From a virus (Duplodnaviria; Caudoviricetes), in IMG/VR virus record IMGVR_UViG_3300014204_000153, positions 21,248 to 85,247 of that record: a DNA stretch of 64,000 nucleotides, one strand, 5' to 3'. Every line of letters begins with the position of its first letter. The first letter of the stretch is position 1. Of the stretch, positions 25,698 to 54,084 are shown one piece after another. Below the pieces are notes generated by a model that saw only the letters and a program-made list of their open reading frames with translations, was not told the DNA's origin and did no database searches. Both the position numbers and the translations under genes were made by a program.

Positions 25698-27602
25698 ATG
25701 GCTATAAATTTTCCTAATTGGTTTAATACATTTAAAAGAAAAAGTCCAGCTATAGGACCTGAGAACGTTTACAATCCAGTTGTGACTACAAGAGATTATT
25801 CTGATGTAGGTGTTGATAGTTCATTCCAAAAAGGTGATATGCTAGCCGCTACTGGACTATCATATCCCACCGTAGTTGGTTCGAATTCTGTTACAAGCAT
25901 GGGTGGATTTTTTGGAGGTTACTTCTCCTTTAGTGGATGGCAAGGTTCATTTCCACTTCATGTTATGCACAGCTTGGTAAGACTTTATTTATGGATGGGT
26001 CAAGATCCAGATATAAGATATGCTATAGATGAAATAGTTAATGAAGCAGTTTCGACAGCATATAATAATGATATAGTTAAGATAGATTTAGATAGTGTAG
26101 AAATGCCAAAGTCAATTAAAGAAAGAATATCAGACGAATTTGGTGGTATTCTTGATATGATGGAATTCAAGAGGAAATCCTACTATCACTTCAGTGATTT
26201 CTATACAAACGGCAGAATATTTTATAAATTAGATGTTAGTAAGAAAAATGCTAAAGCTGGAATTAAAGGGATAAAAAACTTATCACCATTTGATGTTATA
26301 GCATATTTCGATGGTCAGAATAATGTATTCAGAGATCCAGAATCTGTAAAGATAGATTTTAAAAGAGGATATGTTCTTACAGAAAATGCCTTTAGAAATG
26401 CTTATTATCTTGGTATGACTAATCCAGCTGTAGCAGCTGGTACTCCAAGGATGAGTAATTATTATGTTGCCGTTCCTGAAGAATTGGTAGTTTATCAGCA
26501 CACTGGATTATCTGACTGGCGTTCAAATGTTCCAATATCATATCTTCATCTTGTACTAAGGACTCTTAATCAACTTAGAAACCTTAGAGATGCTATGATA
26601 ATTTATAGAATGACTAGAGCTCCTGAAAGATTTGTGTTTAATGTTGAAGTTGGAAAAATGCAAGCGGCTAGAGCTCAGCAATATGTAGCAGAAGTAGCAT
26701 CGAAACTTAAGCAGACTATAAGTTATGTTCCAGAAACCGGTCAGTTTAAAGACATGGAAGAAAAGCTTCAGATATACAAAGATTGGTATTTCCCTAAGGT
26801 AGACGGCAAAGGTACAGATGTAGACGTTCTTCAGAGCGGTAACATGCAGGGTCAGTTAGAGGAAGTCCAAGCTATTCGGAAGGACCTGTTCATGCAACTG
26901 TTCATCCCTCCGAACAGATATATTGATGATCATTCAATGATGAACTTCGGTTCCATGGGAGACATGGAGAAGTCAGAAGTAAAATTCTTCAAGTTCATAT
27001 CTAGACTTCAACTACAGTATAGTTCGGTATTTTATGATATGTTAAGAATGCAACTTAGTATGAAAAATATTATGACTGCTAAAGAATTTGATAAGATAAA
27101 AGGTTCTATAAAGTTCTCTTGGGGTTCAGAGAACGTATACAGCGAGGCTAGAAACTTTGCTGTTATGCAAAGGAAAGCAAGTGTTCTTGGTCAGTTTGAA
27201 AATTACATTGGATCATATGGCATATCTGAAGATTGGATTACGAAGAATGTTATGGGATTCACTGATGAGGAAATAAAAGATAATGAAAGTACAGTTTTAG
27301 ATTCAATGAAGAAAAAGAACTACCGCGACAGAATTAAGAATGGCCAGATATTGTTCGATGAGAATGGTAAAGAAATAAAAGATCCGTATGGAACAGGTGG
27401 TGGTGGAATGGATGCTAGTGGTGGTGGAGAAGCGCCCGCAGATGGTGAAGAAGTTCCACCTGAAGAAGGTGGTGGAGAACAACCAGAAGGTGAAGCTGGA
27501 AATGCAGAAACGTCTGGAGAAGATAAAGAGAAGACTGAAAGCGTATTAATAGTTAAATCTAGATTTAAGGATCTTCTGTTAGAGAGGTTAAAAGATAAAT
27601 GA
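25698..27602 (+). CDS. gp20: Portal protein
   Basis: AIDEIVNEA, ISYLH, DAMIIYRMTRAPERFVFNVEVGKM, acidic Gly-rich tail. Confidence 0.95.
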   Translation: MAINFPNWFNTFKRKSPAIGPENVYNPVVTTRDYSDVGVDSSFQKGDMLAATGLSYPTVVGSNSVTSMGGFFGGYFSFSGWQGSFPLHVMHSLVRLYLWMGQDPDIRYAIDEIVNEAVSTAYNNDIVKIDLDSVEMPKSIKERISDEFGGILDMMEFKRKSYYHFSDFYTNGRIFYKLDVSKKNAKAGIKGIKNLSPFDVIAYFDGQNNVFRDPESVKIDFKRGYVLTENAFRNAYYLGMTNPAVAAGTPRMSNYYVAVPEELVVYQHTGLSDWRSNVPISYLHLVLRTLNQLRNLRDAMIIYRMTRAPERFVFNVEVGKMQAARAQQYVAEVASKLKQTISYVPETGQFKDMEEKLQIYKDWYFPKVDGKGTDVDVLQSGNMQGQLEEVQAIRKDLFMQLFIPPNRYIDDHSMMNFGSMGDMEKSEVKFFKFISRLQLQYSSVFYDMLRMQLSMKNIMTAKEFDKIKGSIKFSWGSENVYSEARNFAVMQRKASVLGQFENYIGSYGISEDWITKNVMGFTDEEIKDNESTVLDSMKKKNYRDRIKNGQILFDENGKEIKDPYGTGGGGMDASGGGEAPADGEEVPPEEGGGEQPEGEAGNAETSGEDKEKTESVLIVKSRFKDLLLERLKDK

Positions 27603-28495
27603 AATTTTATCAAATAACAGAATCTATTATATCAGATAAGAAAAATCTTTATGATAAATCTCCATCTGATATAGCTAAATTCTTTGTAGAATCTAGTGGA
27701 AGAAAGTTAGATGTAGCTAAGTCTAGATTAACTTTCTGGAGAAATAGACTTAGAACAAGAGATAAAAATCCAGAAATAGAAAAGAAGTACAGAGATGCTT
27801 TAAATATTATAAATCGAATGGCTGGAAGAAGTTTAAGAAGTAAAGGACATACTGATAATGATTTAATAAGAAAAACAACAGATGATAGAAAATATCTTAT
27901 GGCTATTTCAGAGCTTAAAAAAGAAGCAAAGAGATCTGGAAAATATGTATCAGATAAAGAAGCAGGAAATATAATATCAGCAGTGTGTGAATTTACAAGA
28001 ACTGACTATGCTGATATAAGAAAATATCAAATAGCTGATAATCCAGAAAATTATAACGATACTTTTAAAAAATACTCAGAACAAATTGAAAAATATATTT
28101 CTTTAATGCCAAAGTATAAAGATGGAACTGTTTATAGAGGTATACAAGTAGGAAGTTTTGGTGAACCAAAAGATATAAAAAAATTTGCATTTTTGAAACC
28201 AGGTGATGAAATAGATATGCGTGGAACATCATCTTGGAGTAGTAAAGAAGATGAATCACATGTTAAGAGAAGAAATATTAAGTTTGTTTTAGAAAAGCCT
28301 TTAACTGGAGTATCTGTTAATTTAGTTTCTGAGTTTCCAGCTGAAGATGAAGTTACTTTTTCTAAAGATTCTAGATTTTATGTAAAAAAAGTTAAGCTCA
28401 AAAAAGATCCGGAGCTGTCTGGAGATTATGATGAAAATTCAGATAATTATTATTCTTTTATGCATGTTTACATATATGTAGAGGAAAAGGAATAA
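27599..28495 (+). CDS. Putative internal head protein with an R-S-E ADP-ribosyltransferase domain
   Basis: MKFYQITES leader; YRG, TSSWSS, EDE. Confidence 0.75.
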   Translation: MKFYQITESIISDKKNLYDKSPSDIAKFFVESSGRKLDVAKSRLTFWRNRLRTRDKNPEIEKKYRDALNIINRMAGRSLRSKGHTDNDLIRKTTDDRKYLMAISELKKEAKRSGKYVSDKEAGNIISAVCEFTRTDYADIRKYQIADNPENYNDTFKKYSEQIEKYISLMPKYKDGTVYRGIQVGSFGEPKDIKKFAFLKPGDEIDMRGTSSWSSKEDESHVKRRNIKFVLEKPLTGVSVNLVSEFPAEDEVTFSKDSRFYVKKVKLKKDPELSGDYDENSDNYYSFMHVYIYVEEKE

Positions 28496-28501
28496 TTTAA
28501 T

Positions 28502-29431
28502 ATGAAATTTTATTTTATATCTGAATCTATAATATCAGACAAGAAAAAGCTATTAGATAAAAATCCAATAGAAATAGCTAATTATTTCATATCTTCAAGT
28601 AATAATAATATCCAAGCTGCTTTAAATAGAGCAGTCTTTTGGAGTAATAGAATAACTTCAGATAGAAAGAATAGTTTTCAAGATAAAGAAAAAGTAAGAA
28701 AAGTAGTAGATATAATAAAATCTATGATAGGAAAAGTAAGTATTACTGGTCATCATAAAGATGTTTTTGATCAAAATAAAGAAATTCATTTTTTTAAAAA
28801 TAATGATCAACATGATGAAAAAGATAGATTAAAACATGCAAGAAAATTAATCATTTCTGATGCAAAGAAAAATGGTTATAAAATAAATGAAGATCATGCA
28901 TATGATATGATAAAGTCTGTGTATGATTTTACTGATTCAGATTATGAAGTTATGAGAAAAATTCAAAGTGATCCAAATTTTAAATATAATGAAGATGAAA
29001 AAGATAAATTAAAATTAAAAAGTAAATATATAGAACAATTTATAAAAATGTCTCAAAAATTTTCTGGAAATACAATATATAGAGGTTTAGAATTTGAATT
29101 ATATAAAAGTTTAAAAGAAACATATGAAAAAAATATGAAAATAGTTAAAGGTTTTTCTGAATTAAAAGAAGGTGAAGAAGTAAATATGTTAGGTACTTCT
29201 TCTTGGACTAGTAATAAAAATGAACGTCATGTAAAAGAAAGTAATATTATTTTTATATGTAATAAACCAAAAAACGGAGTACCAGTTAATCATGTTTCTA
29301 GATATCCAAAAGAAGATGAAGTTATGTATTCAAAAGATGCAAGATTTATAGTTAAAAAAGTTGAAGTTAAAAAGAATAAAGAAGGTGATATAACAAAGAT
29401 AAAAATCGAAGTTGAAGAAAATAACATTTAA
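28502..29431 (+). CDS. Paralogous internal head ADP-ribosyltransferase-like protein
   Basis: MKFYFISES leader; YRG, TSSWTS, EDE. Confidence 0.75.
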   Translation: MKFYFISESIISDKKKLLDKNPIEIANYFISSSNNNIQAALNRAVFWSNRITSDRKNSFQDKEKVRKVVDIIKSMIGKVSITGHHKDVFDQNKEIHFFKNNDQHDEKDRLKHARKLIISDAKKNGYKINEDHAYDMIKSVYDFTDSDYEVMRKIQSDPNFKYNEDEKDKLKLKSKYIEQFIKMSQKFSGNTIYRGLEFELYKSLKETYEKNMKIVKGFSELKEGEEVNMLGTSSWTSNKNERHVKESNIIFICNKPKNGVPVNHVSRYPKEDEVMYSKDARFIVKKVEVKKNKEGDITKIKIEVEENNI

Positions 29432-29445
29432 TATATGAGGGTATT

Positions 29446-29727
29446 ATGAATTACTCTGAAAGAGAAAAGTCAAGAGCTAAATCTGATAGAAATATAAAAG
29501 TTACTTCTCCAGACGGTAAAGTTATCATAGATACTTCATCATTATCGAATAAAAAGACTAAGTTTAGCGATATACTAAATTTAAAATTGAAAATAGAACG
29601 CAATCCTAGTGATGGATCAAAAAAGTATTGGATAACTGGACCAAAAATATTTTTTGAATTTCCAGATGGTACTACTGAAGATGAAGCAAGAGAAAAGTTG
29701 AAAGAAATGAAGAAAGGGAAGAAATGA
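29446..29727 (+). CDS. Hypothetical protein
   Basis: GAGG RBS, 93 aa. Confidence 0.65.
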   Translation: MNYSEREKSRAKSDRNIKVTSPDGKVIIDTSSLSNKKTKFSDILNLKLKIERNPSDGSKKYWITGPKIFFEFPDGTTEDEAREKLKEMKKGKK

Positions 29728-30110
29728 AATTTAGAGATATCATAGAAGATGAAGGTGGAGAAGCTTCTCCAGCTGTTAGTACTATTACTACTGATGATAT
29801 AGCTCAGTTTGGAGATAGAATTGGAGCAAAGAAGAAAAAGAAGCCTCCCATCGCTAAGAAACCTCTTGTCAACTGGAGAAAGAACCATGTAGAAGTAGAA
29901 TCGCTAGTCGCGGAAAGAGATTACAGCGAATTCGACGATCTAAAGTCTGCTTATCCAGCTAAAGATTCTTACTCTATTTTTACTGAAACAGATCCAGCGA
30001 CGAAAGTAAAAAGATACATCATAGAGAAAAACAACAAAATAGTCTTTGGTCCGACCACTGACGAGAAAGCTGCTAGGTCTAAGCTAAACGATCTTAGAAC
30101 AAAAAAATAG
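29724..30110 (+). CDS. MKF-leader protein (putative internal head protein)
   Basis: MKFRDIIED leader. Confidence 0.7.
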   Translation: MKFRDIIEDEGGEASPAVSTITTDDIAQFGDRIGAKKKKKPPIAKKPLVNWRKNHVEVESLVAERDYSEFDDLKSAYPAKDSYSIFTETDPATKVKRYIIEKNNKIVFGPTTDEKAARSKLNDLRTKK

Positions 30111-30156
30111 GATATAATGGAGTAACTAAACATTATTACTTAAAGGAATTATTAAA

Positions 30157-30429
30157 ATGAAATTTAAAAATATTCTTTTAGAAACATCTAAAATTAATGA
30201 TTCAGAGAAGATTATAACTAAAGAAAGACTTAATAGTGGAAATTCTAATGGATTAGTTAGAGAACTGATAAATAAGGCTGAGAACGACGGCTCAAAAAAT
30301 CCATATGCTTCTGCTCTTAGAGCTATTAATGATTATGTCTTGAGAAATAAAGAAAAACTTTCTCCAGAAGAAATGAATGTTCTAATTAGAGCTAGAAGAT
30401 CATTGAGAGCAACAATAGGAAATTATTGA
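30157..30429 (+). CDS. MKF-leader helical protein
   Basis: MKFKNILLE leader. Confidence 0.7.
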   Translation: MKFKNILLETSKINDSEKIITKERLNSGNSNGLVRELINKAENDGSKNPYASALRAINDYVLRNKEKLSPEEMNVLIRARRSLRATIGNY

Positions 30430-30466
30430 TTCTAAGGATAAGTATAAAGAAAAGAAAAGAGAAGCA

Positions 30467-30758
30467 ATGAGAAAACCTCCACTGAACCAAAATTATAAAA
30501 ATATAAAATAGGAGATCTAATATGAAGTTCGTACAGATGATGGAAGATGATAATAGCAGATTCAAAGAACTTACTGACAAAATAGCAGAGCTTAAAGGAG
30601 AAATGAATAGTAATCGTGGATCTGGGGCTGGGGCTGGAGAGCAACATAACCTAATTAAAAGTGATTACATCTATTATAAGAATGAATTAAAAAACCTTAA
30701 AGAAAAAATGAAATTGAAAGCAAAGACTACTAAATGAGAAAACCTCCACTGAACCAAA
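30467..30758 (+). repeat. 25-bp direct repeat (30467-30491, 30734-30758) duplicating the gp4 start
   Basis: ATGAGAAAACCTCCACTGAACCAAA occurs twice, flanking the 30522-30737 gene. Confidence 0.9.
30522..30737 (+). CDS. MKF-leader small coiled-coil protein
   Basis: MKFVQMMED leader. Confidence 0.7.
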   Translation: MKFVQMMEDDNSRFKELTDKIAELKGEMNSNRGSGAGAGEQHNLIKSDYIYYKNELKNLKEKMKLKAKTTK

Positions 30759-31192
30759 GAGGTAGAAGAAATGTAAAAAGAGGTGTATATATACTCATAC
30801 ACCCAGAGAAATACATTGGAGATTGTAACAATGTAATTTATCGTTCAGGATTAGAACTTGCATGTTTTAAATTTCTTGATGCTAATTCAAATGTTAAAAG
30901 ATGGGGAAGCGAAATTGTTCAGATTCCATATTTAGATGCAAGTACTGGAAAGAAAAGAACTTACTTTGTCGATTTATATTTTGAATCAATAACTTTAAAT
31001 GGTTCAACAGATAAAGTCTTGGTAGAAGTAAAACCGTCTAATCAGACAATTCCACCAAGATCAGATATGAAGAATTACAGAGCAGCTGCAGCTGAGTATG
31101 CTAAGAACATCAGCAAGTGGACAAGAGCTAGAGAATGGGCTTCTCAGAACGGTGCAAGATTTGAGATTATAACCGAGAAGGAAATACATTAA
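30734..31192 (+). CDS. gp4: Head completion nuclease gp4 (TnsA-like PD-(D/E)xK)
   Basis: PEKYIGD..NVIYRSGLE, WGSE…IPY, YFVD, VEVKP..QT, F.IITE. Confidence 0.92.
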   Translation: MRKPPLNQRGRRNVKRGVYILIHPEKYIGDCNNVIYRSGLELACFKFLDANSNVKRWGSEIVQIPYLDASTGKKRTYFVDLYFESITLNGSTDKVLVEVKPSNQTIPPRSDMKNYRAAAAEYAKNISKWTRAREWASQNGARFEIITEKEIH

Positions 31193-31701
31193 TGAAATTC
31201 TCAGCAATCCTTGAAGAATCTATGTCTTTAGAATCTTATAGAAAATTCTCTAAAAAATTCTTTGATAAACTTCCAGAAGATATTAGAATATCTATAAGTC
31301 ATTATTCTGGAATGGGTTCTAGAGCTGTTAATATGTTTCTTACTTCTGGAAATGCTGGTAGTGGATGGCCAAAAGATTTATTAAAAAAGATAATAAAAGA
31401 CATAGAATCAATTTCTCAAAATAATGCACTTAAGAATAGTATAGTTGTTTTTAAAGGAGTAAAATACAAACCGAAGGTTGGAGAAAGTTTAAAGACTCCT
31501 GGTTTTATCAGTACATCTGTAAGTAAAGAGATAGCTGAATCTTTTGCTGGATCAGATGGAACAGTTATAATGATAAATCTTCCAATTGGTACAAAAGCAT
31601 TCCCAATTCCAAATTCAGAATTCGAAATGCTTCTATCAAAGCAATATCAAATAAAAATAATTAAATATGATAAAAATATAGCAATTGGAGAATTAAAGTG
31701 A
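31192..31701 (+). CDS. MKF-leader VIP2/exoenzyme-type ADP-ribosyltransferase
   Basis: HYSG…VNMFL, VFKG, PGFISTS…AESFA, EFEMLL. Confidence 0.8.
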   Translation: MKFSAILEESMSLESYRKFSKKFFDKLPEDIRISISHYSGMGSRAVNMFLTSGNAGSGWPKDLLKKIIKDIESISQNNALKNSIVVFKGVKYKPKVGESLKTPGFISTSVSKEIAESFAGSDGTVIMINLPIGTKAFPIPNSEFEMLLSKQYQIKIIKYDKNIAIGELK

Positions 31702-32550
31702 AATTCTCAACAGTACTTAAATCTAATGAAAAGCCTCTTTATTCTGAGACACCAGATAAAATAGTTAATCATTTTTTAAAATCTTCTAAAAATGATAAAG
31801 ATATTGCTTTAAAAAAATTCATATTTTGGTCTAATGGTCTTAAAAAGAAACTTAACTATCAAAATAATAAAATATATGTATATAATGTAGAGACTGCTAA
31901 AAAGATATTATCTAAAAAAGATGAAGAGCATGAAAATTCTAAAATAGATTCTATGATAAATAATTTTAATTTTTCTGAACGAACTAAAAATAGTGTAAAA
32001 TTAGCATTGGAAACTGGATTTAATTCTTTCTCAAAAACAAAGCTTAGTGATGAAGAACAGTCATTTATAGATTCGCATGTTTCTGGAGATCCTAAAACAG
32101 AAAAAATAAAACCAAAATTACTTAATAATGTTAAACATCCAGTTTCTGTATATAGAGCATATAATGATTCTGATATAAAAAAAGATACATTCATTTCTTT
32201 TACTTTAAGAAAAGACTGGGCAGAAAATACAGCAAATGATAATGATCTTAAAGTAATGAAGTTAAATCTTATAGTCGGAGATAAAGTTTTATTTGTTCCA
32301 TTCTATAATAACAAACATATAGTAGAAGTAGAAGTACTTATTCCAAGTAACTTAGTTAAAGAAAGAAATTAATAAAATATAGCAATTGGGGAATTAAAAT
32401 GAATAAATTCTCAGCAGTACTTAAATCTAATGAAAAGCTCCTTTATTCTGAGACACCGGATAAAATAGCTAATCATTTTCTAAAATCTTCCGAAAATGAT
32501 AAAACTGCTGCTTTAAAGAAATTTATATTTTGGTCTAATGGTCTTAAAAA
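31673..32550 (+). repeat. ~170-bp imperfect direct repeat (about 31673-31845 and 32375-32550)
   Basis: Covers the upstream gene end/RBS and the first ~50 codons of two consecutive genes. Confidence 0.85.
31698..32372 (+). CDS. MKF-leader protein, shared N-module + divergent ART-like C-domain
   Basis: VYRA, FISFT…WAE, EVEVLI resemble the R-S-E ART core. Confidence 0.55.
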   Translation: MKFSTVLKSNEKPLYSETPDKIVNHFLKSSKNDKDIALKKFIFWSNGLKKKLNYQNNKIYVYNVETAKKILSKKDEEHENSKIDSMINNFNFSERTKNSVKLALETGFNSFSKTKLSDEEQSFIDSHVSGDPKTEKIKPKLLNNVKHPVSVYRAYNDSDIKKDTFISFTLRKDWAENTANDNDLKVMKLNLIVGDKVLFVPFYNNKHIVEVEVLIPSNLVKERN

Positions 32551-33097
32551 ATTAAACATTACAAAATATGATTTTAATATAGAAACAGCAAAAAAAATAT
32601 TATCATCTAATAATAATGATAAACCGTGGAATGAAATACAAAAATATAATGGGATGGATGTAGATAAAGAAATGAATCAAAATATAATGGATAGACTTAA
32701 TTCTAAAACTCATATAATTAGTGTTTGTAGTGGACATCCTAAAGATTCTAAATTAGCAATTGATGCAGGTGCATCAGAATATCCTCATTTTATATTTAGT
32801 GTTTATAATCCAAGGGATTTTGAAAAAACAGTAGAATATATTAAATCTAAATTAAAATCAAAAGATACAAAAATTAATGCTCATGCATGGGGAGGACCAT
32901 ATGGAAATTGGGTTGTTTGGAATGATAAAGAAGGTTGGAGAAATCATAAATTTCCAGAAGATCCTCAAAAATATAAAATAGACCATATTTCAATTACTGT
33001 TGAATCAACTATAGCACATAATGGAAAAAATCAAAAAATGTTAAATAATTGGTGGGAATTAATTACAAATAAACTAGAAGAATTGGATAACATATGA
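32399..33097 (+). CDS. MKF-leader protein, shared N-module + CSGH-motif C-domain
   Basis: N-terminal ~50 aa nearly identical to the previous gene; ISVCSGHP motif. Confidence 0.65.
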   Translation: MNKFSAVLKSNEKLLYSETPDKIANHFLKSSENDKTAALKKFIFWSNGLKKLNITKYDFNIETAKKILSSNNNDKPWNEIQKYNGMDVDKEMNQNIMDRLNSKTHIISVCSGHPKDSKLAIDAGASEYPHFIFSVYNPRDFEKTVEYIKSKLKSKDTKINAHAWGGPYGNWVVWNDKEGWRNHKFPEDPQKYKIDHISITVESTIAHNGKNQKMLNNWWELITNKLEELDNI

Positions 33098-33519
33098 CAT
33101 CAAAATTTTCAGCAATATTAGAAGATTTCGAAGCCAATGAAGATGGAGCTAAAAAGAAACTTGAGGCTCTTGAAAGATTATTGGTAAGAGTTGGAGCTAA
33201 ACCAGGTGCTCAAAGAGTTCAGGCTCTAAATAATGAAAAGACAGAATTTAAGACTCTGCTTTTCTTTAGAATGAATAATTCTAAAGGTGAACCTGTTGAA
33301 CTAATGGCTGGTCATATAGATGGACAAAATAGAGCAAATAATTATTCTGTTCATAGAAAAGATGGAACAACAAGAGCAGACAAGAACACATATATCGATG
33401 TCGTAAGAGATTCTCCAAAAGATGTTAAAGAAAAACTTCAAGAATTAGTTAATAAGATGGCAAATATAAATGCTGGATTCAGAGAGAAACTTAATTCTCG
33501 TGGATGGAATAAAGAGTGA
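33094..33519 (+). CDS. MKF-like leader protein
   Basis: MTSKFSAILED leader. Confidence 0.7.
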   Translation: MTSKFSAILEDFEANEDGAKKKLEALERLLVRVGAKPGAQRVQALNNEKTEFKTLLFFRMNNSKGEPVELMAGHIDGQNRANNYSVHRKDGTTRADKNTYIDVVRDSPKDVKEKLQELVNKMANINAGFREKLNSRGWNKE

Positions 33520-33755
33520 AATTTAAAGATACGATAAAAGGAATTAGAGATATACCACTTAAAAATGGTGGTTCTAGACTTGTACCAAGAAAAAATGGTA
33601 AATTTTCTGTAGCTAATGCTGGATGTAAAATATGCAATAGTTGCGGACAAATAATATGCAAAGATACAAAGAATGTTGGTTCAGAACAATTTCCTTTCTT
33701 AAAAGAAACTTGGCCAGATAAATGTCCGTCTTGTGGAAATAAGGAATTTAAATGA
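33516..33755 (+). CDS. MKF-leader Zn-ribbon protein
   Basis: MKFKDTIK; CKICNSC … CPSCG. Confidence 0.7.
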   Translation: MKFKDTIKGIRDIPLKNGGSRLVPRKNGKFSVANAGCKICNSCGQIICKDTKNVGSEQFPFLKETWPDKCPSCGNKEFK

Positions 33756-34948: not shown

Positions 34949-35112
34949 GCAATAAAGAAGACGGAAAAGAACTTCACAGAGCGGCTCTTAATTGCGCAGC
35001 TAAAAGAGATTATGCTGGTTTCAAGAAGAATATCAATGACATAATGGAGAATAAGTTTGACGCTAAAACTACATCAATTGCGCCGACTTTTTTCACTAAA
35101 ATCGAGGAATAA
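34927..35112 (+). CDS. Small prohead core protein (gp67-like)
   Basis: Position before gp21; helical 61 aa. Confidence 0.45.
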   Translation, partial: EKERINMSNKEDGKELHRAALNCAAKRDYAGFKKNINDIMENKFDAKTTSIAPTFFTKIEE

Positions 35113-35780
35113 TGACTGAAAGAGACACTGCTCTATTCGAGTCATTCGGTGAAACGGTTGTAGAAGAAGTATGTAATGAAGGTGAAGAAAAGAATTATTA
35201 TCTTTCTGGATTGTACACCGAATGCGACGTAAAAAATGGTAACGGAAGAACTTATCCTACCTCTATTGTTGAGAGGGAAATAAATGGAAAGATACTTCCA
35301 AAGGTTAAAGCTGGTACAGCTTTTGGTGAATTCGGCCATCCTAAGACTTTAGCTGAAATGCCAAGCATAGATCCATCAAGAATTGCTCACCGTATAGTAG
35401 AAATACAGAAAGAAGGGAATAATATTTTCAGAGGTAAATCTGTACTTGTTCCTGAAGGTCTTGGTAAAGTAGCTATTGCAATGGTTAAAACTGGCGGTGT
35501 TTTATCTGTTTCATCTAGAGGTGTTGGTAGAGTTAATAAGCAGACTGGAGTTGTAGAGAGCAGCTACAATATGTTTACGTATGATGTAGTGCTAAATCCA
35601 GGAATGAAGAAAGCAAACCAAACAGCTGTCATGGAGAATCAAGAATTCTTCGTAAATCAGATTGGAGTGTTTACTGAGGAGGAGTGGTACAAAATTGAAA
35701 AAGATAGATCAAAAATGTTAGATGCTACATTCTTTAGAGCTGACCTTCTTAGTGGGTTAGCTGAAATAGCAAGGAGTTAG
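35112..35780 (+). CDS. gp21: Prohead core protease
   Basis: KNGNGRTYP, GEFGHP, IAHRI, VSSRGVG, TYDVVLNP. Confidence 0.95.
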   Translation: MTERDTALFESFGETVVEEVCNEGEEKNYYLSGLYTECDVKNGNGRTYPTSIVEREINGKILPKVKAGTAFGEFGHPKTLAEMPSIDPSRIAHRIVEIQKEGNNIFRGKSVLVPEGLGKVAIAMVKTGGVLSVSSRGVGRVNKQTGVVESSYNMFTYDVVLNPGMKKANQTAVMENQEFFVNQIGVFTEEEWYKIEKDRSKMLDATFFRADLLSGLAEIARS

Positions 35781-35795: not shown

Positions 35796-35803
35796 TATAA
35801 ATA
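35796..35803 (+). promoter_or_regulatory. Late promoter TATAAATA
   Basis: Exact motif upstream of the scaffold and capsid genes. Confidence 0.75.
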
Positions 35804-35858: not shown

Positions 35859-36668
35859 ATGTCTAATAAAATAAAGACACTGTTCGATGAACTCAGAAGT
35901 AAGTACCCTGAAGTTATCTCAGAAGAGTTCGCATCGAAAGTTGTCGCAGTTGTAGAAGAAATCGTAGAATCAGAGAAGCAGAAAGCTATTGATGAGATTA
36001 GAGAAACTGAATCTGAAAAGATTCGTGAAGAAATCTCAGAGGAAGTAAAGGATCAGTCTGAAAGTGAGATCGAGAAATTAGTTAATACTCTTGATGTATT
36101 CTGTGAAAATGCTGTCAATGAATTTTGTGATAGCAAAGCAGAACTTCTAGAGGAAGCTACTAAATCTACGATTAGCTCAGTTCTTGCTGAGAAGATGAAA
36201 GAAGTCTTTGAGACTTATGGTATTGTTACCGAGGAATCAGCTGAAGTTAAAGCTGATCTTGAAAAGCAAGTTGAAGAACTCAACGAAACTATCGGTAACA
36301 TGGCTGATACTATTTCTGAACTCAGCGAAGAAAAGAAAAAGTCAGATGCTATCTCAGTCGTCGATGAATTCTGCAGTGAAATGAATATGACTGACACTGT
36401 CAAGTTCTATAAGCTGATTGAAGATTATGATATCGATGATGTTGATAGTTTCAGGGAAAAAGTTGAGTCTCTCGCTTCTGTCTTTGAACAAGGTAAAGAA
36501 TCTGATGAAGACGAAGACGAGGATGAGGACGAAGATCCTGAAGATGGTGGTGGTAGGAAAGTTGAAAAGAAAAATATTAAAGATTCAGATGAAAAAGAAG
36601 ATAAGTGCGAGTCTGATGACGAAGACGCTTCCTTCATCTCGAGAGTTAGAAAGAATCTTAAAAAATAA
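35859..36668 (+). CDS. gp22: Prohead core scaffold
   Basis: Acidic helical protein between gp21 and gp23. Confidence 0.85.
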   Translation: MSNKIKTLFDELRSKYPEVISEEFASKVVAVVEEIVESEKQKAIDEIRETESEKIREEISEEVKDQSESEIEKLVNTLDVFCENAVNEFCDSKAELLEEATKSTISSVLAEKMKEVFETYGIVTEESAEVKADLEKQVEELNETIGNMADTISELSEEKKKSDAISVVDEFCSEMNMTDTVKFYKLIEDYDIDDVDSFREKVESLASVFEQGKESDEDEDEDEDEDPEDGGGRKVEKKNIKDSDEKEDKCESDDEDASFISRVRKNLKK

Positions 36669-36729: not shown

Positions 36730-38247
36730 ATGGCAGATAAAAGGAAAGACATCGTTAAGGCTTATATCAAAGCGGTAGAAGCCGAAGACAACACCGCTTT
36801 TGCTAATTCAAGAGTTAAGCATATAACTGAAGTTGTTCTTGAAAACCAGATAGATCATTACATCGAGACTTCTGGTAAGACTTTTGATTATATCGCTAAT
36901 CAGATCCTTGGTGAAGACGGCACCCTGAATGAGACCGCGGCTGGTTCCTCATTCGCGGATGCTGACGTTGCTAAGTTCGCCGAGATCTATCTTCCGATCG
37001 CAGCTAAGGTTATTCCTTCACTAGTTATTAACAACATGGTTGGTGTTCAGCCTATGACGCAGCCCAACGGGTTCGTGTATGCTATGCGCGCGTTCCATGC
37101 TAAATCTCCGTATGCTGAATCAACTGATATGCGTGGCATGCGGTACACCAATACACAGATTCTAAACTTTGCGACGGCAACCTCCCTCGCGGTTGGATCT
37201 GGTAATTGTTGGTTCATCGCTTCAAGCGGTGCTAAAGGTTACTGCGTTCACAAAGAAGGTACCCTCGCTCTAGTTAAGATCTCAGATGAAGATACTCCGT
37301 TCGCTGCTGGTGACACTGCTACTATTGGCAGTTCATCTTCGGTTACTTATTCTACTGCTGATCTTACTGTGCTTTCAATCTATAATAACGAAATTGCTCA
37401 GGCTGCCGGTCTGTTCAAGTACTTCTCAGGTTATACCAACAGTGGTTCAGCTGAAGGTTCCGCCGCGTTTAGTACTGATCAGGGTCAGTATCCTCAGAAT
37501 GTTAGTGAAGTGCAGATCAGAGTTGAGAGAGAAGCTGTTGAAGCTAAGACCCGCCAGCTGTATGCTGAGTATCCGATCGAAGCCGAACAGGATCTTCGCG
37601 CGATTCACAAACGTGACCTAAGAGCTGAACTCTCTGAGATCACTGCTGGCGAAATCGTTAATGAAATCAACTCCGAGTTCATCGCCAATATCAAGACTGC
37701 TGCTCAGATCGGTGGGTCAACGACCTTCGATATGGAATCAGCTGACGGACGTTGGGAAATTGAAAAATTCCGTTCACTGTGGGTCAGAGTTACACGTGGA
37801 GCTAATCAAATCGCTCAGGCAACTCGCTTAGGACCTGGTAACTTCATCGTTGCTAGCCCTGATGTTTGCACTGCTCTTAGTCAGCTCGACGGCTTTGCTG
37901 CTGCTCCTCCTAAGGGTGCTTTCGGTGGCATGAGTCCTATCGGTGGTGACTGGTATGTTGGTAAGATCGGTGGAACGATGGATGTTTACCGTGATATGTT
38001 CGCTACTACGGATTATATCTCTGTCGGTCGTAAGGGTTCCAATGAGTGGGATGCGGGCTTATTCTTCCTTCCGTACATTCCGCTACAGTTCATCGCAGGA
38101 CAAACACCAGATAATTTACAGCCAAAACTCAAGTTCCTAACCAGGTATGGCAAGGTTGCTAACGTCTTGCGCGCCTCTTCCAGCCAGGTTGCGGATAGCC
38201 GCTATTACCGGTATATTGCAGTTCAGAATCTGTTCGCGAGTTACTGA
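36730..38247 (+). CDS. gp23: Major capsid protein
   Basis: VLENQ, VGVQPMTQPNGFVYAMR, VEAKTRQLYAEY.IE.EQDLRAIH, GNFIVAS, FLPYIPL, F.TRYG. Confidence 0.97.
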   Translation: MADKRKDIVKAYIKAVEAEDNTAFANSRVKHITEVVLENQIDHYIETSGKTFDYIANQILGEDGTLNETAAGSSFADADVAKFAEIYLPIAAKVIPSLVINNMVGVQPMTQPNGFVYAMRAFHAKSPYAESTDMRGMRYTNTQILNFATATSLAVGSGNCWFIASSGAKGYCVHKEGTLALVKISDEDTPFAAGDTATIGSSSSVTYSTADLTVLSIYNNEIAQAAGLFKYFSGYTNSGSAEGSAAFSTDQGQYPQNVSEVQIRVEREAVEAKTRQLYAEYPIEAEQDLRAIHKRDLRAELSEITAGEIVNEINSEFIANIKTAAQIGGSTTFDMESADGRWEIEKFRSLWVRVTRGANQIAQATRLGPGNFIVASPDVCTALSQLDGFAAAPPKGAFGGMSPIGGDWYVGKIGGTMDVYRDMFATTDYISVGRKGSNEWDAGLFFLPYIPLQFIAGQTPDNLQPKLKFLTRYGKVANVLRASSSQVADSRYYRYIAVQNLFASY

Positions 38248-39531: not shown

Positions 39532-39667
39532 TCTACAATTCAGTCTAGATACCATCCAGTCAACTTATCTGACTTTAATATAGGATATTGTATTTTAAAC
39601 AATAAAGTGCCTCTAAAGTCATTCTATGAACCCTAGAGGCAATTCTGGTTGAATGTTGAAAGTATTT
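39532..39667. repeat. ~136-bp dispersed repeat, copy B (inverted relative to 5271-5406)
   Basis: Reverse complement aligns with copy A end to end. Confidence 0.9.
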
Positions 39668-40067
39668 AGTTTTTTCTAAAATGTTCGATAGCAGAAAGAG
39701 ATTTCTTCATCTGATTTTCATGGCCTTCAACTGGTTTTCTTCCAGCCGTTGTTCTAAAACCCCAACTATCTTTCTTTGATATAGTTGGATTTAACTGATA
39801 TCTTGCGGTGCCTCCTGGTCTGTTTTTTGAAGGCTGATGCGAATTAAAACCGCCAGGTCGTTCTTTTTTATACCTAATTTCTCTACGATATGTTCCATCT
39901 GAATGATACAAATAAACTACATCACGATCATCATTGCTAGCTTTTGTATCAAGATATGCTTTAATACCTTTGCTCTTTTGTTTATCTGTAGTAATTTCTT
40001 TCAGACCAATAGTCGAAAAATGGCCGTGTATATCTTTAGCCTCTTCTAATACAGTTTTAAATTTCAA
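39666..40067 (-). CDS. MKF-leader protein
   Basis: MKFKTVLEE leader. Confidence 0.7.
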   Translation of the reverse strand: MKFKTVLEEAKDIHGHFSTIGLKEITTDKQKSKGIKAYLDTKASNDDRDVVYLYHSDGTYRREIRYKKERPGGFNSHQPSKNRPGGTARYQLNPTISKKDSWGFRTTAGRKPVEGHENQMKKSLSAIEHFRKN

Positions 40068-40374
40068 AACTCTTTCTCCTTAGAATTGAAGGATCTTTTT
40101 CTGGGTTTCTTATTTCTTCTTCTAATGATTTAATTGCTGCTCCAATTGATGATTTAAACCATCCAGAAATCTTTTCTTTTCCAGATTTATTTTCACTGTT
40201 TGGAACCATAACATATGCTCTTATATCTCCATATCTTCTTTCATCAAATTTTACTTTGTAATCTATTCCTTTATAATTTACTTTATGATTTGGAAGAACA
40301 TCTCTAAGGCCACCCGGTCTCATTGTTTCATATTGAGAAAAATCACGTTCTTCTAACATATCTCCAAATTTCAT
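40057..40374 (-). CDS. MKF-leader protein
   Basis: MKFGDMLEE leader; late-promoter variant AATAAATA on the minus strand at 40415-40422. Confidence 0.7.
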   Translation of the reverse strand: MKFGDMLEERDFSQYETMRPGGLRDVLPNHKVNYKGIDYKVKFDERRYGDIRAYVMVPNSENKSGKEKISGWFKSSIGAAIKSLEEEIRNPEKDPSILRRKSFEI

Positions 40375-41404: not shown

Positions 41405-41465
41405 TCTGTTTGAATTTCAATAGTAATAATATAAATCATTGGTAGTTAAATGTCAACTAGTTTTT
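41405..41465 (-). promoter_or_regulatory. Early promoter, copy 10
   Basis: TGTCAA 41451-41456, AATATA 41428-41433. Confidence 0.9.
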
Positions 41466-43711: not shown

Positions 43712-43768
43712 TTGTTTCAATTTCAATAATAATATAAATCATTGATAGTAAAATGTCAACTACTTTTT
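43712..43768 (-). promoter_or_regulatory. Early promoter, copy 11
   Basis: TGTCAA 43754-43759, AATATA 43731-43736. Confidence 0.9.
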
Positions 43769-44855: not shown

Positions 44856-44870
44856 AGACGGAGGAATTAA

Positions 44871-45662
44871 TTGAAGAAATTTAGCGAAATAGAGATAAGT
44901 TCAAAACCGTTTAAGATGAAGACTATTGATACTGAGTCTGCTGGAAAAGATGGAAGGGCCGCTCTGTTTAAGACCAACTGGGAGAAGAAAAGTTTCTCAA
45001 AGATGGAATCTGGGCAGCCGGCAAAAAACGCCGTAAGAGCGGCCCTTCGGACGGCAGGTGATGCAGTATCTACATTTTCTTCTGGAAAACTTGTGTCTAT
45101 TGGTGTAACTAAGAATGATAAGATTTTTGTTTCTGGAGTTAAGCTTGGAGATTATTATGAACATGAAGACTTCGAACCAGCATGGAGATCGTTCGAAAAG
45201 TTCTATGATTCCAGAGATACATATGTTGGTGGAAAAGAAGAAATAGCTTTCTCCATCGATAGAGCTAAACTTACTAAGTCAGAAAAAGAAGTTGTTGATA
45301 AAATAGATTCAGATAGAGAAGCGGTTAAAAAGAAGATATCAGATTGGTTCGACAAGATAAAAGTAAAAGGTTCACCTGAACGTATTGAACTTGAGAAACA
45401 TATTACAAGCAGGGGATCAAGATTTGATTACTATGATCATCCTGAAAAAGATGCTAAAGGTGAAGTTATATCATATGATAAAAGTAAAGCTTTCGATAAA
45501 AGATTAAAAGATGCTAAAGAGAAATATTCAAAGGGTAAGACTCCAGAACAATGGAATGAAATTGAAAGAAATATGAGAGAATTCGCTGAAAATGCAGTTC
45601 CCAGTAAACAAAGTAAAGCATGGACAGTTGGAACTATGTTTGGTCCTGGGGGTAGGAAGTGA
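44871..45662 (+). CDS. Hypothetical protein with an MKF-like leader
   Basis: MKKFSEIE N-terminus; inserted between gp13 and gp14. Confidence 0.65.
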   Translation: MKKFSEIEISSKPFKMKTIDTESAGKDGRAALFKTNWEKKSFSKMESGQPAKNAVRAALRTAGDAVSTFSSGKLVSIGVTKNDKIFVSGVKLGDYYEHEDFEPAWRSFEKFYDSRDTYVGGKEEIAFSIDRAKLTKSEKEVVDKIDSDREAVKKKISDWFDKIKVKGSPERIELEKHITSRGSRFDYYDHPEKDAKGEVISYDKSKAFDKRLKDAKEKYSKGKTPEQWNEIERNMREFAENAVPSKQSKAWTVGTMFGPGGRK

Positions 45663-46419: not shown

Positions 46420-46430
46420 ATGGAGATAAG

Positions 46431-46733: not shown

Positions 46734-46743
46734 GGGAAATACT

Positions 46744-48789: not shown

Positions 48790-48804
48790 TAAAGTTAGAT
48801 TAAA

Positions 48805-49149: not shown

Positions 49150-49174
49150 TCTTGATCTCCTTTGTTTAAGTTTT

Positions 49175-49233
49175 GTTTCAATTTCAATGTATTAAATATA
49201 AACAATAGAAGTCAGAATGTCAACTACTTTTTA
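49175..49233 (-). promoter_or_regulatory. Early promoter, copy 12
   Basis: TGTCAA 49218-49223, AATATA 49195-49200. Confidence 0.9.
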
Positions 49234-49237
49234 AAAA

Positions 49238-50932: not shown

Positions 50933-50948
50933 TGCAAACAATGGGTTT

Positions 50949-50956
50949 TATAAATA
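50949..50956 (+). promoter_or_regulatory. Late promoter TATAAATA
   Basis: Exact motif upstream of sheath 1. Confidence 0.75.
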
Positions 50957-51013
50957 CTACTATATAACAATGGTCTGATTGCGTTGTCTTCTATAAAGAG
51001 AAAAGGAAAAAAA

Positions 51014-52969
51014 ATGGCAAAAGACACTTATCCTTCTGTTAAATTTTCTGAGACTGATCTGACTAATGTAATCAGATCTCAGTTCAGTAATATCGGTGGT
51101 ATGGTTGGACGATTCCAAATGGGTCCGGTTAATAGACCTGTTATCGTCTCAGATAAGACTGAACTTATAGAATCGTTTGGTCTTCCGGTAAGTACAGGAA
51201 CTTCTATAGACAATCTTCAAGATTGGTACAATGCTGCAAATTATCTTGGATATTCTTCTGGATTATTTGTTTGCAGAGTAGAACCAGTTACGTCAAGAAA
51301 TGCTGGAATGAACTTTACAGGTTCAGCTACAGCGTTTGCTTCTGTATCTGGTGGAACTTCTGTGTACGTGCCTGATGGTTATGATATGGATCTTTACTAC
51401 GCTACAATGAGCGGCACTGGTTATTGTGGTCTAAACTTAGTATCTAAAAATCCTGGTACCTGGGGCAATGATATTTCAGTAAAGTTTGCTACTGAAGAAG
51501 ACATGAGATTTGATCTTACTACTTCTTACTGGGATAAGTACTATTACGACTATACGGTAGCACTTACTCTTTCAAGTCCTCTTAGTGGACTAACTGCCCT
51601 TGGAACATCTGCTCAATACGTTACTAATTCAGCAAGTCAGACCGGTTTTGTAACGACTGTAGCGGGTGGTGGTACTTCCTTGGTTGTAGCTTATAATTCT
51701 GGTTCGTTTGGTTCGGGTGTAAGTATAAACGTCGGAGCTACATACGCTGCTGCTGGTGCTGTTACTACTTCAGCTGTCGGGACTCCAATTAATTATGGTT
51801 ACAATACTTTCAGTAAGCTGTTCGACGTTCAATCTGGAACCAATGAAATAGCAGTCGCTGTGTATTATAAGAATGTTCTGAAGGAAACTCATATTGTTTC
51901 CATTCTTCCAACTGCTGTCAACGAATATCAGCAACTTAAGTATGTTGACGATTGGATGACTGCTAATTCTGGTTATATTTCAGCATATTATAATACCACG
52001 AAGAGCTTTAATCTTGCTCCTCAAGCTGCTACTGCTGTAAGTCTTCTCGGCGGAACTCTTGCGGATCAAAGTTATGTTACTGCTGCTCTTGGTGTTAATG
52101 GAGCAGACGTATTCGCAGATAAAGATAATTATCCAGTATCGGTTCTATTCGACGGTGGATTTGCTTGGAGTTCTACTGTTCAGAATGAACTTATATCTGT
52201 TGCTGAAGCAAGAAAAGATTGCTTTGTGGTAACCTCAGTTGGTTCCACAATGCCAACAGCTTCAGAAACAGCGGCAATGAATACTGCAACAACTGGTCTT
52301 GTAGCTAGAAGGGCCGCTCTTACTTCATCTACATATGCTGGGTTCTGGGGAAATTTCAAGTGGCAGAAAAATGTATATACCGGTAAGCTCTTCAAATGCT
52401 CACTTTCTGGTGATATTGCTGGTATTATATCCAGAAATGATATTCTATCTGCTCCGTGGTATGCTCCTGCTGGTTATAGCCGAGGTGGAATCCAGTTGGT
52501 TGAGAAACTTGGAGTTAATTTCTCCAAGACCAATCAAGGTCTTCAGCATGTTAAGCAGATAAACAATGTTATCTATGATCAAAGAGAAGGTGGTTATTAC
52601 CTCTTATCACAGAAGACGGCAATTGGTAGACCGAGTGCATTCAGTGATATAAATGTTAGAAAGTTATTCATCTATGTAGAGAACGCTGTGCTTAACTCTG
52701 CTAAAGCGTTCATGTGGGAATTCAACGATGTTATAACCAGATCGAACTTCTCAGCCATAGTTACCAACTTCTTAAGTACTATAAAATCAGGAAGAGGCAT
52801 CTATGACTTCAGAGTAGTTTGTGATGATACTAATAACACCGCTGATATCATAGATACAAATCAGATGATTTGTGACGTGTATATCAAGCCCGCTAGGTCA
52901 ATCGCTTGGATCACAGCTAGGTTCACCGCTGTGCGCACGGACGCATCGTTTGATGAGCTGGCTGGATAA
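51014..52969 (+). CDS. gp18: Tail sheath protein, copy 1
   Basis: P.V.FSE.D, GPVN.P, PGTWGN, ARKDC, WYAPAG..RG, INVRKLF, FEFND..TR, F.VVCD.TNNT. Confidence 0.95.
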   Translation: MAKDTYPSVKFSETDLTNVIRSQFSNIGGMVGRFQMGPVNRPVIVSDKTELIESFGLPVSTGTSIDNLQDWYNAANYLGYSSGLFVCRVEPVTSRNAGMNFTGSATAFASVSGGTSVYVPDGYDMDLYYATMSGTGYCGLNLVSKNPGTWGNDISVKFATEEDMRFDLTTSYWDKYYYDYTVALTLSSPLSGLTALGTSAQYVTNSASQTGFVTTVAGGGTSLVVAYNSGSFGSGVSINVGATYAAAGAVTTSAVGTPINYGYNTFSKLFDVQSGTNEIAVAVYYKNVLKETHIVSILPTAVNEYQQLKYVDDWMTANSGYISAYYNTTKSFNLAPQAATAVSLLGGTLADQSYVTAALGVNGADVFADKDNYPVSVLFDGGFAWSSTVQNELISVAEARKDCFVVTSVGSTMPTASETAAMNTATTGLVARRAALTSSTYAGFWGNFKWQKNVYTGKLFKCSLSGDIAGIISRNDILSAPWYAPAGYSRGGIQLVEKLGVNFSKTNQGLQHVKQINNVIYDQREGGYYLLSQKTAIGRPSAFSDINVRKLFIYVENAVLNSAKAFMWEFNDVITRSNFSAIVTNFLSTIKSGRGIYDFRVVCDDTNNTADIIDTNQMICDVYIKPARSIAWITARFTAVRTDASFDELAG

Positions 52970-52978
52970 AATCTAAAC

Positions 52979-53015
52979 CATGAAGCATGGTATATTAAAT
53001 ATACCATGCTTCATG
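52979..53015. terminator. Long perfect hairpin after sheath 1
   Basis: CATGAAGCATGGTATAT/ATATACCATGCTTCATG. Confidence 0.75.
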
Positions 53016-53031
53016 TAAATTGGAGATATAA

Positions 53032-53240
53032 ATGGACTTCGGAAAAAAGAAAAATAAAAAGTTAATTCTTAATATTATAAATAATTCTATTACTTCATCT
53101 TCAGTAAACAAAATAAATATTGTTAATATTTTAGAAAAGTTGCTAAAGATTTAAAAAGTGGAATAGTAACTATGGATAGTGATGGAAATATTATAGATGA
53201 TTTTGGAAATCATCTCGGTAAAGCAACTATCATTTTATAG
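53032..53240 (+). pseudogene. Frameshifted small gene
   Basis: Frame ends …ILEKLLKI*; the -1 frame continues KVAKDLKSG…DGNIIDDFGNHLGKATIIL*, resembling the C-terminus of 54413-54982. Confidence 0.4.
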
Positions 53241-53257
53241 TACAAGGGAATAAAAAG

Positions 53258-53503
53258 ATGAAATTTAAAGATATAAATGAAAAACATAATAGCTTAATAA
53301 CTAAATCAAATGGCAAGCCTATTAATTTAATAGAATATGCAAAACGTGGTGATTGGTGGTATATGCGCCGTCATGATAGAAAACCACTTGGATTCAGAAA
53401 GACTATTTACACATCACATACTAGCCCAGGTGCCTTACTTGATGTTGTTCAATCTTCTTTACCAAATCATATACATACTATAAATTATCAAGAGTCAGAT
53501 TAA
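53258..53503 (+). CDS. MKF-leader protein
   Basis: MKFKDINE leader. Confidence 0.7.
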   Translation: MKFKDINEKHNSLITKSNGKPINLIEYAKRGDWWYMRRHDRKPLGFRKTIYTSHTSPGALLDVVQSSLPNHIHTINYQESD

Positions 53504-53532
53504 TTTAAAGCACTAAAAATAAATGATAAAAG

Positions 53533-53712
53533 ATGAAATTCAGAGATATGTTATTAACTGAGTCTGATGATAAAAGTGTAACTATAAAATTTCAACAAGG
53601 TATGAAAAGTACATGGAAAGCTAAGACATTTAAAAATCAAGCCGCTCTTGAAAAATGGATGGATAAACATTCGGATGATATTAGCAATATTAGTTACTCT
53701 TATTCAAATTAA
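53533..53712 (+). CDS. MKF-leader protein (59 aa, not in the ORF track)
   Basis: MKFRDMLLTESDDKSVTIKFQQGMKSTWKAKTFKNQAALEKW…. Confidence 0.65.
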   Translation: MKFRDMLLTESDDKSVTIKFQQGMKSTWKAKTFKNQAALEKWMDKHSDDISNISYSYSN

Positions 53713-53730
53713 CATAAAGGAAATGAAACA

Positions 53731-54084
53731 ATGAAATTCTCTAAATTAAACGAAGTAAAGCTAGAAGATACAAAAATTGATGGAAAAAACAAAAGTTTAA
53801 GAAAATCTCAGGAAAATGATCATGATGAATGGCAACATGGTATATTTCAAGCAATGAGTAGAATAGTACAGCCTACAAATAGATTGAGAATAATTAATCA
53901 ATTCGATACAATTGAAAAACTAGAAAATCTTATTCCTTCTGAATATTCTAGTATAAGATCTAAAATTGCTTCATTAGCTTCAAAGCAACGTCAGATAAAC
54001 AATATAAAAAGACAAGCTAGAATAGAAGCTCAATTAATAATTGATGAACTTAAAAGTAAAAGTAAAAAAGAAGTTAAAATATAA
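53731..54084 (+). CDS. MKF-leader helical protein
   Basis: MKFSKLNE leader. Confidence 0.7.
   Translation: MKFSKLNEVKLEDTKIDGKNKSLRKSQENDHDEWQHGIFQAMSRIVQPTNRLRIINQFDTIEKLENLIPSEYSSIRSKIASLASKQRQINNIKRQARIEAQLIIDELKSKSKKEVKI

Follow-up and report, generated by a model that had tools for sequence, protein, structure and literature searches.

We analyzed a 64,000-nucleotide stretch of viral DNA (hereafter the window; bases 21248-85247 of the 85,247-bp metagenomic contig IMGVR_UViG_3300014204_000153) in which sixteen genes open with variants of one short N-terminal leader, MKF-x-x-hydrophobic-x-E. An earlier note on this DNA had read these genes as a repertoire of proteins that are targeted to the phage head and injected with the genome. 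Coordinates are window positions, on the plus strand unless stated otherwise. PHROG and Pfam scans delineated a T4-type late region, which runs from gp53-like and hub proteins, copies of gp2 around a homing endonuclease gene, a 1070-aa lysozyme-bearing protein and a gp48-like cap, through the portal gp20, gp4, the prohead protease gp21, the scaffold gp22 and the major capsid protein gp23, to neck proteins, the large terminase, two sheath genes and a tube gene. The contig has a G+C content of ~32%, its portal and capsid proteins are only ~28-32% identical to those of any cultured phage, and megablast returned no match. Judging from these comparisons, the contig is a deep-branching, uncultured myophage of the T4 superfamily, very distant from T4 itself.

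The main block of leader genes has the gp20 portal gene (25698..27602; phrog_213, E 1e-109) as its upstream border, and ten leader genes lie in the gap between this gene and that of the gp21-family prohead protease (35112..35780; phrog_207, E 1.4e-38; precomputed PF03420 and PF20034). The start of the first, g27599 (27599..28495; 298 aa; MKFYQITE/S, the slash marking the predicted cleavage point), overlaps the portal stop codon; its product consists of the leader, an N-terminal module (N-module) and a putative C-terminal Alt-type ADP-ribosyltransferase (ART) domain (YRG .. GTSSW .. EDE), and the same architecture is seen in g28502 (28502..29431; 309 aa; MKFYFISE/S). They are followed by g29724 (29724..30110; 128 aa; MKFRDIIE/D), which gave no family match, g30157 (30157..30429; 90 aa; MKFKNILLE/T) and g30522 (30522..30737; 71 aa; MKFVQMME/D). 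Inside the block also lies a gp4-like head-closure gene (30734..31192; phrog_218, E 4e-41), whose product begins MRKPPLNQ, without the leader, and so provides an internal negative control. Behind it come g31192 (31192..31701; 169 aa; MKFSAILE/E), a minimal leader-plus-ART protein by prediction; g31698 (31698..32372; 224 aa; GTG start; MKFSTVLKSNE/K), which joins the shared N-module to a C-terminal domain; g32399 (32399..33097; 232 aa; MNKFSAVLKSNE/K), with the N-module of g31698 and another C-terminal domain; g33094 (33094..33519; 141 aa; MTSKFSAILE/D); and g33516 (33516..33755; 79 aa; GTG start), a Cys-rich, zinc-ribbon-like protein with a loose version of the leader and an Asp at position 12.

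The remaining leader genes are found further downstream. Two of them are on the minus strand, g40374 (40057..40374; 105 aa; MKFGDMLE/E) and g40067 (39666..40067; 133 aa; MKFKTVLE/E), with start codons at 40374 and at 40067 (TTG), respectively; for these the earlier note had given the low coordinate of the open reading frame (ORF). A third, g44871 (44871..45662; 263 aa; TTG start; MKKFSEIE/I), again with a loose leader, is positioned between gp13-like and gp14-like neck genes. The last three form an islet behind the first sheath gene: g53258 (53258..53503; 81 aa; MKFKDINE/K), g53533 (53533..53712; 59 aa; MKFRDMLLTE/S) and g53731 (53731..54084; 117 aa; MKFSKLNE/V), the last with the LNE tripeptide that also occurs at the candidate gp23 site described below. 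No cargo family was assigned to g30157, g30522, g33094, g40067 or g40374.

All sixteen N-termini translate as the earlier note had written them, and at the places given there. The leader spans 8-12 residues: Met, Lys, Phe, two variable residues and then one or two hydrophobic ones, usually with a Glu at the end. At least 11 of the 16 have I/L/M/V-x-E ending at residue 8-10, that is, a hydrophobic P3 and a Glu P1; the two KSNE leaders (g31698 and g32399) end in S-N-E, and g33516 and g44871 depart from this form. A strict pattern (M, 0-2 residues, KF, 1-3 residues, I/L/M/V, 0-3 residues, then one of I, L, M, V, N, T or S and E) matched 13 of the 122 called genes against 0.12 expected (binomial P ~1e-22), the expectation being derived from the rate of the pattern at internal positions of the same proteins (0.001). 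Since g29724 also fits, having been lost to an antisense ORF in the greedy gene call, 14 genes are strict members. A scan of the whole 85,247-bp contig, in line with the genome-wide scan that the earlier note had proposed, found MKF followed by an open frame of at least 40 codons at real gene starts only in leader genes.

Relaxing position 3 to L, Y, M, I or W added only dubious internal or very short ORFs, for example MKLNEFISIE at 3127, and the look-alike g18308 (MRKFFESLEE) was set aside as a gp53-like baseplate wedge protein whose resemblance is probably coincidental. Leader-like strings were also seen inside proteins. The leaderless 93-aa ORF g29446 (29446-29727) contains TKFSDILNLKLKIE at residues ~38-51, and the g29724 homolog of a related phage (L001 9076-9714) has ..LNE LKFSDLLE T.. 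at residues ~77-88, where the Leu is encoded by TTA, not a start codon. Such strings may represent leader genes that were fused or have decayed, or sites of internal cleavage. Two distant ORFs, at 2208 and at 54982 (minus strand), have an identical 20-nt upstream string and open with MKLKQ from a TTG codon; what they share is more suggestive of a repeated promoter or 5' element than of a protein leader.

A Shine-Dalgarno-like purine run lies 6-10 nt upstream of almost all leader genes, and leader codons are about as varied as those of the genome. Because they vary like the rest of the genome, the constraint acts on the peptide and not on the DNA. The Lys codon is AAA in 15 of the 16 leaders, against ~71% of Lys codons genome-wide, and Lys is the commonest second residue overall (32 of 122 genes). 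Both features would suit a motif that acts in the mRNA, as an A/U-rich start with an AAA second codon supporting translation initiation and high late expression. However, the leader is absent from the late genes with the highest expression (gp23, gp22, sheath and tube), its conservation reaches residues 6-10 in varied codons, and Phe is written as TTT or TTC at the genomic ratio (10/6 in leaders and 906/471 genome-wide), so that we find a function in translation hardly credible. Even less probability, practically none, attaches to an export or membrane-targeting signal: the leader is N-terminal and has Lys followed by hydrophobic residues, but only one to three of these precede an acidic residue, no hydrophobic core of signal-peptide length is present, and the proteins are basic and soluble-looking.

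The location of the main block and the genes next to it offer a more specific comparison. In the annotated T4 order, 20-67-68-21-22-23, the interval between portal and protease is occupied by 67 and 68, which are prohead core genes. His76 and Ser134 of the protease align with His85 and Ser140 of T4 gp21. Its gene is followed by those of a gp22-type scaffolding core protein (35859..36668; phrog_237, E 6e-20) and of the gp23 major capsid protein (36730..38247; phrog_138, E 1.4e-86). The candidate LNE/T maturation site of gp23, which the earlier note had matched to the leaders, is indeed found, after residue 68, and the related phage has MNE/D; T4 gp23 is cut after residue 65 (PMC9026906). The protease itself begins MTERDTALFE/S (35112-35141), a Glu-ended ALFE site that resembles LIE-9 of T4 gp21.

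In T4, ipII and ipIII begin MKTYQEFIAE/A and Alt begins MELITELFDE. Positions 4 and 7 of the T4 capsid-targeting sequence (CTS) govern targeting and positions 8 and 10 processing, and Asp in place of the CTS Glu permits targeting and blocks processing (PMC9026906). Phe3 and the hydrophobic residue 6 of the leaders described here have the same i, i+3 spacing as the T4 targeting residues, and hydrophobic-x-Glu reproduces the P3-P1 spacing. T4 internal proteins are basic (PMC9026906). The predicted mature leader proteins are basic as well, with an isoelectric point (pI) of 8.9-9.9 in 16 of 16, whereas only 25.6% of 90 size-matched other genes encode proteins with a pI above 8.5.

Three of the cargos resemble ART enzymes. 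PF03496, with a gathering cut-off of 23.4 bits, matched g31192 at 46.4 bits and g27599 at 31.0 bits, while g28502, 36% identical to g27599, fell just under the cut-off at 21.8 bits; the score of T4 Alt for this family is 127 bits. By alignment, the catalytic motifs (Arg, Ser-x-Ser and Glu-x-Glu) of g27599 and g28502 are YRG, TSS and EDE, and those of g31192 are FKG, STS and EFE, with Lys replacing the Arg of the usual (Y/F)RG. On the Pfam scores, at least two of the leader proteins, and g28502 as a third, are probably ARTs, which would probably act by modifying proteins of the host when infection begins. A protein-library homolog, P0145, has FKG like g31192, and the substitution may mark a subgroup with altered chemistry. 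In the PDB, g31192 weakly matched enzymatic components of binary toxins. The nearest relatives of its ART domain belong to giant proteins that contain 2-8 ART stretches; of six such proteins scanned, two have an N-terminal Phage_Mu_F head domain. Small ART homologs elsewhere have no MKF leader, which argues that the leader was grafted onto the ART domain. The C-terminal domain of g31698 may be a fourth ART: this lead comes only from ESM-Atlas structure neighbours with template modelling scores of 0.56-0.64, the sequence motifs being suggestive at most, whereas hhalign against the ART profile was negative and a single-sequence AlphaFold2 model was unusable (predicted local distance difference test 39). 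The C-terminal domain of g32399 gave no usable match to the PDB, ESM-Atlas or families. A survey of viral ARTs inferred probable packaging in the head for those that have portal and terminase genes as neighbours (PMC9503650).

We compared the bodies of the leader proteins all-against-all by BLAST. g27599 and g28502 are paralogs (36% identity over 268 aa), and g31698 and g32399 share 76% identity over the first ~58 residues after the leader and no similarity beyond, with the 20 nt upstream of the two genes also nearly identical. The module of ~35 residues directly behind the leader is common to these four proteins, and no mutual similarity was detected by this comparison among the other bodies. 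The earlier note's description of the genes as unrelated thus holds to the extent that there are about eleven cargo types, and needs correction for the two paralog or module pairs, the N-module in four proteins and the ART domain in three. A word-based homolog search with the N-module retrieved only this phage's own proteins and the same search with g29724 retrieved nothing; when g27599 and g29724 were compared with GenBank phages by tblastn, neither was matched.

One close relative was present in the collections searched, the 36-kb contig IMGVR_UViG_3300029288_002174, whose portal is 60% identical. Judging from the completeness of 21% estimated for this relative, about half of the genome is missing from the contig that contains the window. 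Searches of IMG/VR and JGI metagenomes with the portal and with a portal alignment recovered this same single contig, and GTDB genomes yielded nothing; for the protease, eight close homologs were found on short Logan or JGI contigs. The relative has nine leader-type starts. MKFNKILKGTE and MKLKDIYNLIE follow its portal, MKFKEISINE precedes and MKFSEIINE follows its protease, and an inter-sheath islet syntenic with 53258-54084 contains MKFSDIKILNE, MKFKNLTE, MKYSDIKILNE and MKFKDLTE on four genes with cargo unrelated to that of its counterpart. Altogether, two of the nine cargos are homologous to cargos in the window and seven are unrelated. The first of the two homologs (L001 9076-9714, starting MKLKDIYNLIE) is 52% identical to g29724 over the first ~60 residues, and the second, that of g44871, begins MKMNDVKELNE. 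Conservation of the tag with replacement of the cargo, as between the window and this relative, has been described for the internal proteins of T-even phages (PMC3012670). The paralog pair, the N-module pair with different C-terminal domains and the other cargo of the relative suggest that genes have been gained, duplicated and swapped behind a constant leader.

Such a history could in principle leave the shared N-terminus as a functionless relic, carried along by serial duplication or marking the joint of cassette exchange at a conserved 5' segment. The genes stand in tandem and two duplications are evident, that of g31698/g32399 including the 20 nt upstream. Yet the leader is kept where the bodies outside the two pairs show no similarity, synonymous codon variation leaves no long identical DNA to recombine on, and the leader persists on other cargo at 60% proteome divergence. 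Moreover, a relic leaves the uniformly basic pI and the Glu-ended pattern unexplained, and we regard it as very unlikely.

Alternatively, the leader could target proteins to the prohead core while most of them serve as gp67/gp68-like core or filler proteins that are degraded or stay bound to DNA, and are not effectors that are ejected. The main block lies where T4 has its core genes, most members are small, Lys-rich and without an enzymatic signature, and g29724 and g44871 are the only cargos kept in the relative, as would be expected of structural parts; g29724 is possibly a core component. Against this stand the predicted Alt-type ARTs, at least two in number and joined by a third that narrowly misses the cut-off, the turnover of cargo between two related phages, which resembles that of arms-race genes and not of assembly parts, and the presence of the anti-restriction protein IPI* among the basic internal proteins of T4 (PMC3012670). 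We therefore consider a core or filler role for most members unlikely, though better placed than the other alternatives.

To place the repertoire among T4-like phages more broadly, we retrieved 80 loci surrounding distant gp21 homologs; in the 23 that reach 20 kb or more, N-termini ending in Glu were clustered. An unrelated T4-like contig (L010), with a protease 32% identical, has a leader of its own, MKSFxE[FYI][LMI]xE/[AG]K, in the register of T4's MKTYQEFIAE, on four genes, which flank the protease gene in pairs (8933-11475). The other loci have at most two such genes, and the present phage has eight by the same automatic count and twelve by hand. A shared leader is thus present in one further T4-like lineage at least, while the repertoire described here is the outlier, the largest in the sample. 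One of the leader cargos of L010 matches a domain in PHROG families of ~1700-1850 aa proteins.

Twelve leader genes run in the same direction as late structural genes and are closely packed with them, and all leader genes lie within or adjoining structural modules. The exact late-promoter motif TATAAATA precedes gp22 (at 35796), both sheath genes, the tube gene and the 53258 islet (at 53076); sites with one mismatch are uninformative in DNA this rich in A+T. The earlier note had stated that no early-region gene carries the leader, which agrees with the placement of the other leader genes within or next to structural modules and has to be revised for g40374 and g40067, as these belong to an early-type operon. 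Their minus-strand unit has a sigma-70-type promoter, TTGACA-17-TATATT, at 41456 (11 of 12 positions match) and a terminator at 39641-39608. Near-identical promoters of this type (TTGACA, 17 nt, TATATT) head successive minus-strand units at 43759, 41456 and 39516, and these units sit between the capsid and neck gene blocks.

Taken together, we think it likely that the leader is this lineage's version of the T4 CTS, and that the proteins bearing it are loaded into the head, cut by the gp21 homolog and delivered with the DNA. In silico, the capsid-targeting proposal of the earlier note finds support in the position of the genes, in the protease and its matching site, in basic cargo that includes predicted ARTs, and in the leader conserved in the relative. 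By analogy with T4 IPIII, the propeptide would dock each protein on the gp22-type scaffolding core growing on the portal. After closure of the gp23 shell, the gp21-family serine protease would cut behind the Glu, as the observed type of site and the residues aligned with T4 His85 and Ser140 would allow. The basic mature proteins would then stay with the packaged DNA inside the head, and some of them, at least, would be ejected into the next host. The earlier note had also called the proteins likely anti-defence or host-takeover effectors. This has support from sequence for the ARTs and finds no such support for the other cargos, which are candidate host-takeover, anti-defence or DNA-associated core proteins.

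Several observations weigh against a CTS-type function. Two of the sixteen leaders are loose, that of g33516 (MKFKDTIKGIRD) having no Glu and that of g44871 reading MKKFSEIE. The site has little force as evidence by itself, since hydrophobic-x-Glu is a frequent tripeptide in the A+T-rich proteome of this phage. The leader has two residues fewer than the T4 CTS, and the resemblance between them is one of pattern, with no demonstrable homology; conservation of the leader across phages is seen with a single relative contig. As to timing, g40374 and g40067 stand behind an early-looking promoter and have no exact late promoter of their own. Exact TATAAATA sites are not enriched in the window (12 against ~20 in shuffles), and none occurs at 25000-34566, hence none inside the main leader block. 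Late timing of the main block therefore rests on its co-orientation and tight packing with structural genes.

A further-reaching proposal, which we advance tentatively and hold somewhat less probable than its opposite, is that the genes form a cassette system like that of polymorphic toxins, with a constant cleavable leader, an optional helical N-module and exchanged C-terminal effectors. They would then constitute the largest tag-addressed, head-delivered arsenal known in the T4 superfamily, with sixteen or more members on half a genome and three or four ARTs, and most cargos would be new anti-defence or host-takeover effectors.

Some other features of the late region were recorded alongside. 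The two full-length tail sheath paralogs, of 661 and 582 aa (50984-52969 and 57080-58828), both match phrog_23 strongly. The pair is kept in the relative (L008, 5612-7585 and 2528-4273, both on the minus strand), and in both phages an islet of leader genes directly follows the first sheath gene. At 19833-21367, the gp2 DNA-end-protector profile is matched by two ORFs of 112 and 197 aa that flank the homing endonuclease gene (20191-20781). Downstream of gp4, in the interval between portal and protease, a 398-aa protein (33752-34948) has a 403-aa counterpart in the relative (L001 10193-11404); it has no leader and no Pfam or PHROG match. The ORF at 34945-35112, upstream of gp21, was considered as a gp67 homolog and rejected, BLAST and PHROG giving no support and position being the sole argument.

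The leader offers a route, by sequence alone, to probable head-delivered proteins of an uncultured, deep-branching T4-like phage. The resulting catalogue contains 11 or more protein families without known relatives, which are candidates for host manipulation in the first minute of infection or for counter-defence. A CTS-type tag appears to have been kept, in lineage-specific sequence, across this phage, L010 and T4, with a repertoire that can grow from three or four to about sixteen. Being unlike that of T4, the tag could be put to use in engineered capsids as a second signal for cargo loading, orthogonal to the first, provided that it is specific to its own scaffold. What the present analysis contributes is the catalogue and the comparison rather than a new mechanism.

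The CTS principle has been known since the 1990s, and the T4 capsid-targeting-sequence system was reportedly described by Mullaney and Black in 1996. The shared leader probably works like this CTS and internal-protein system, the principle of which has already been published (PMC3012670, PMC9026906). In both cases, a set of small basic proteins with no other relationship has a short propeptide that starts with MK, has an aromatic residue near position 3-4 and ends in hydrophobic-x-Glu; the genome also encodes a gp21 protease and a gp22 scaffold, and the cargo is hypervariable between related phages. The two systems differ in the sequence of the leader, MKF-x-x-hydrophobic-(x)-E over 8-12 residues here and MKTYQEFIAE in T4. 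They also differ in the number of members: 14-16 on half a genome, whereas in T4 the exact leader was found on no genes but ipII and ipIII, the propeptide of IPI being described in reviews as similar. Furthermore, most members lie between portal and protease, whereas those of T4 are encoded elsewhere in its genome. PHROG and Pfam detected no homology of the cargo to T4 IPI-III; as the class is defined by the leader, a peptide of about 10-19 residues common to proteins of one phage that are dissimilar in other respects, such homology is not expected.

T4 Alt is a head-packaged, gp21-processed and ejected ADP-ribosyltransferase (PF03496; Alt/VIP2 R-S-E clade). PF03496 is shared by g27599 and g31192, with g28502 just below the cut-off, and like Alt these proteins start with a propeptide that ends in Glu, and their genes accompany head genes. 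They are, however, much shorter, at 169-309 aa against an open frame of ~690 aa, and there are three or four candidate copies instead of one. In addition, g31192 has Lys at the catalytic-motif Arg, and in two of the predicted ARTs an additional N-module is present, one that non-ART paralogs have as well.

The MuF polymorphic toxins and polyvalent proteins (PMC5576092, PMC5512222, PMC9503650) similarly combine a constant part for incorporation into the head with interchangeable effectors, among which ARTs are the commonest. They differ in being one giant fusion protein, whereas here separate small genes each have their own, putatively cleavable leader; Pfam found Phage_Mu_F (PF04233) in no leader protein, which are thus not members of the MuF family. 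Finally, many inner-head and ejection proteins of phiKZ, 201phi2-1 and SPN3US are also cut after Glu by a gp21-related protease, and their paralogs share identical N-terminal starts of the propeptide (PMC5694885). The propeptides of these giant phages are mostly much longer, several exceeding 100 residues, and end in A/S/G-x-E (PMC5694885), in contrast to the leaders described here, which have the length of the T4 CTS and end in hydrophobic-x-E.

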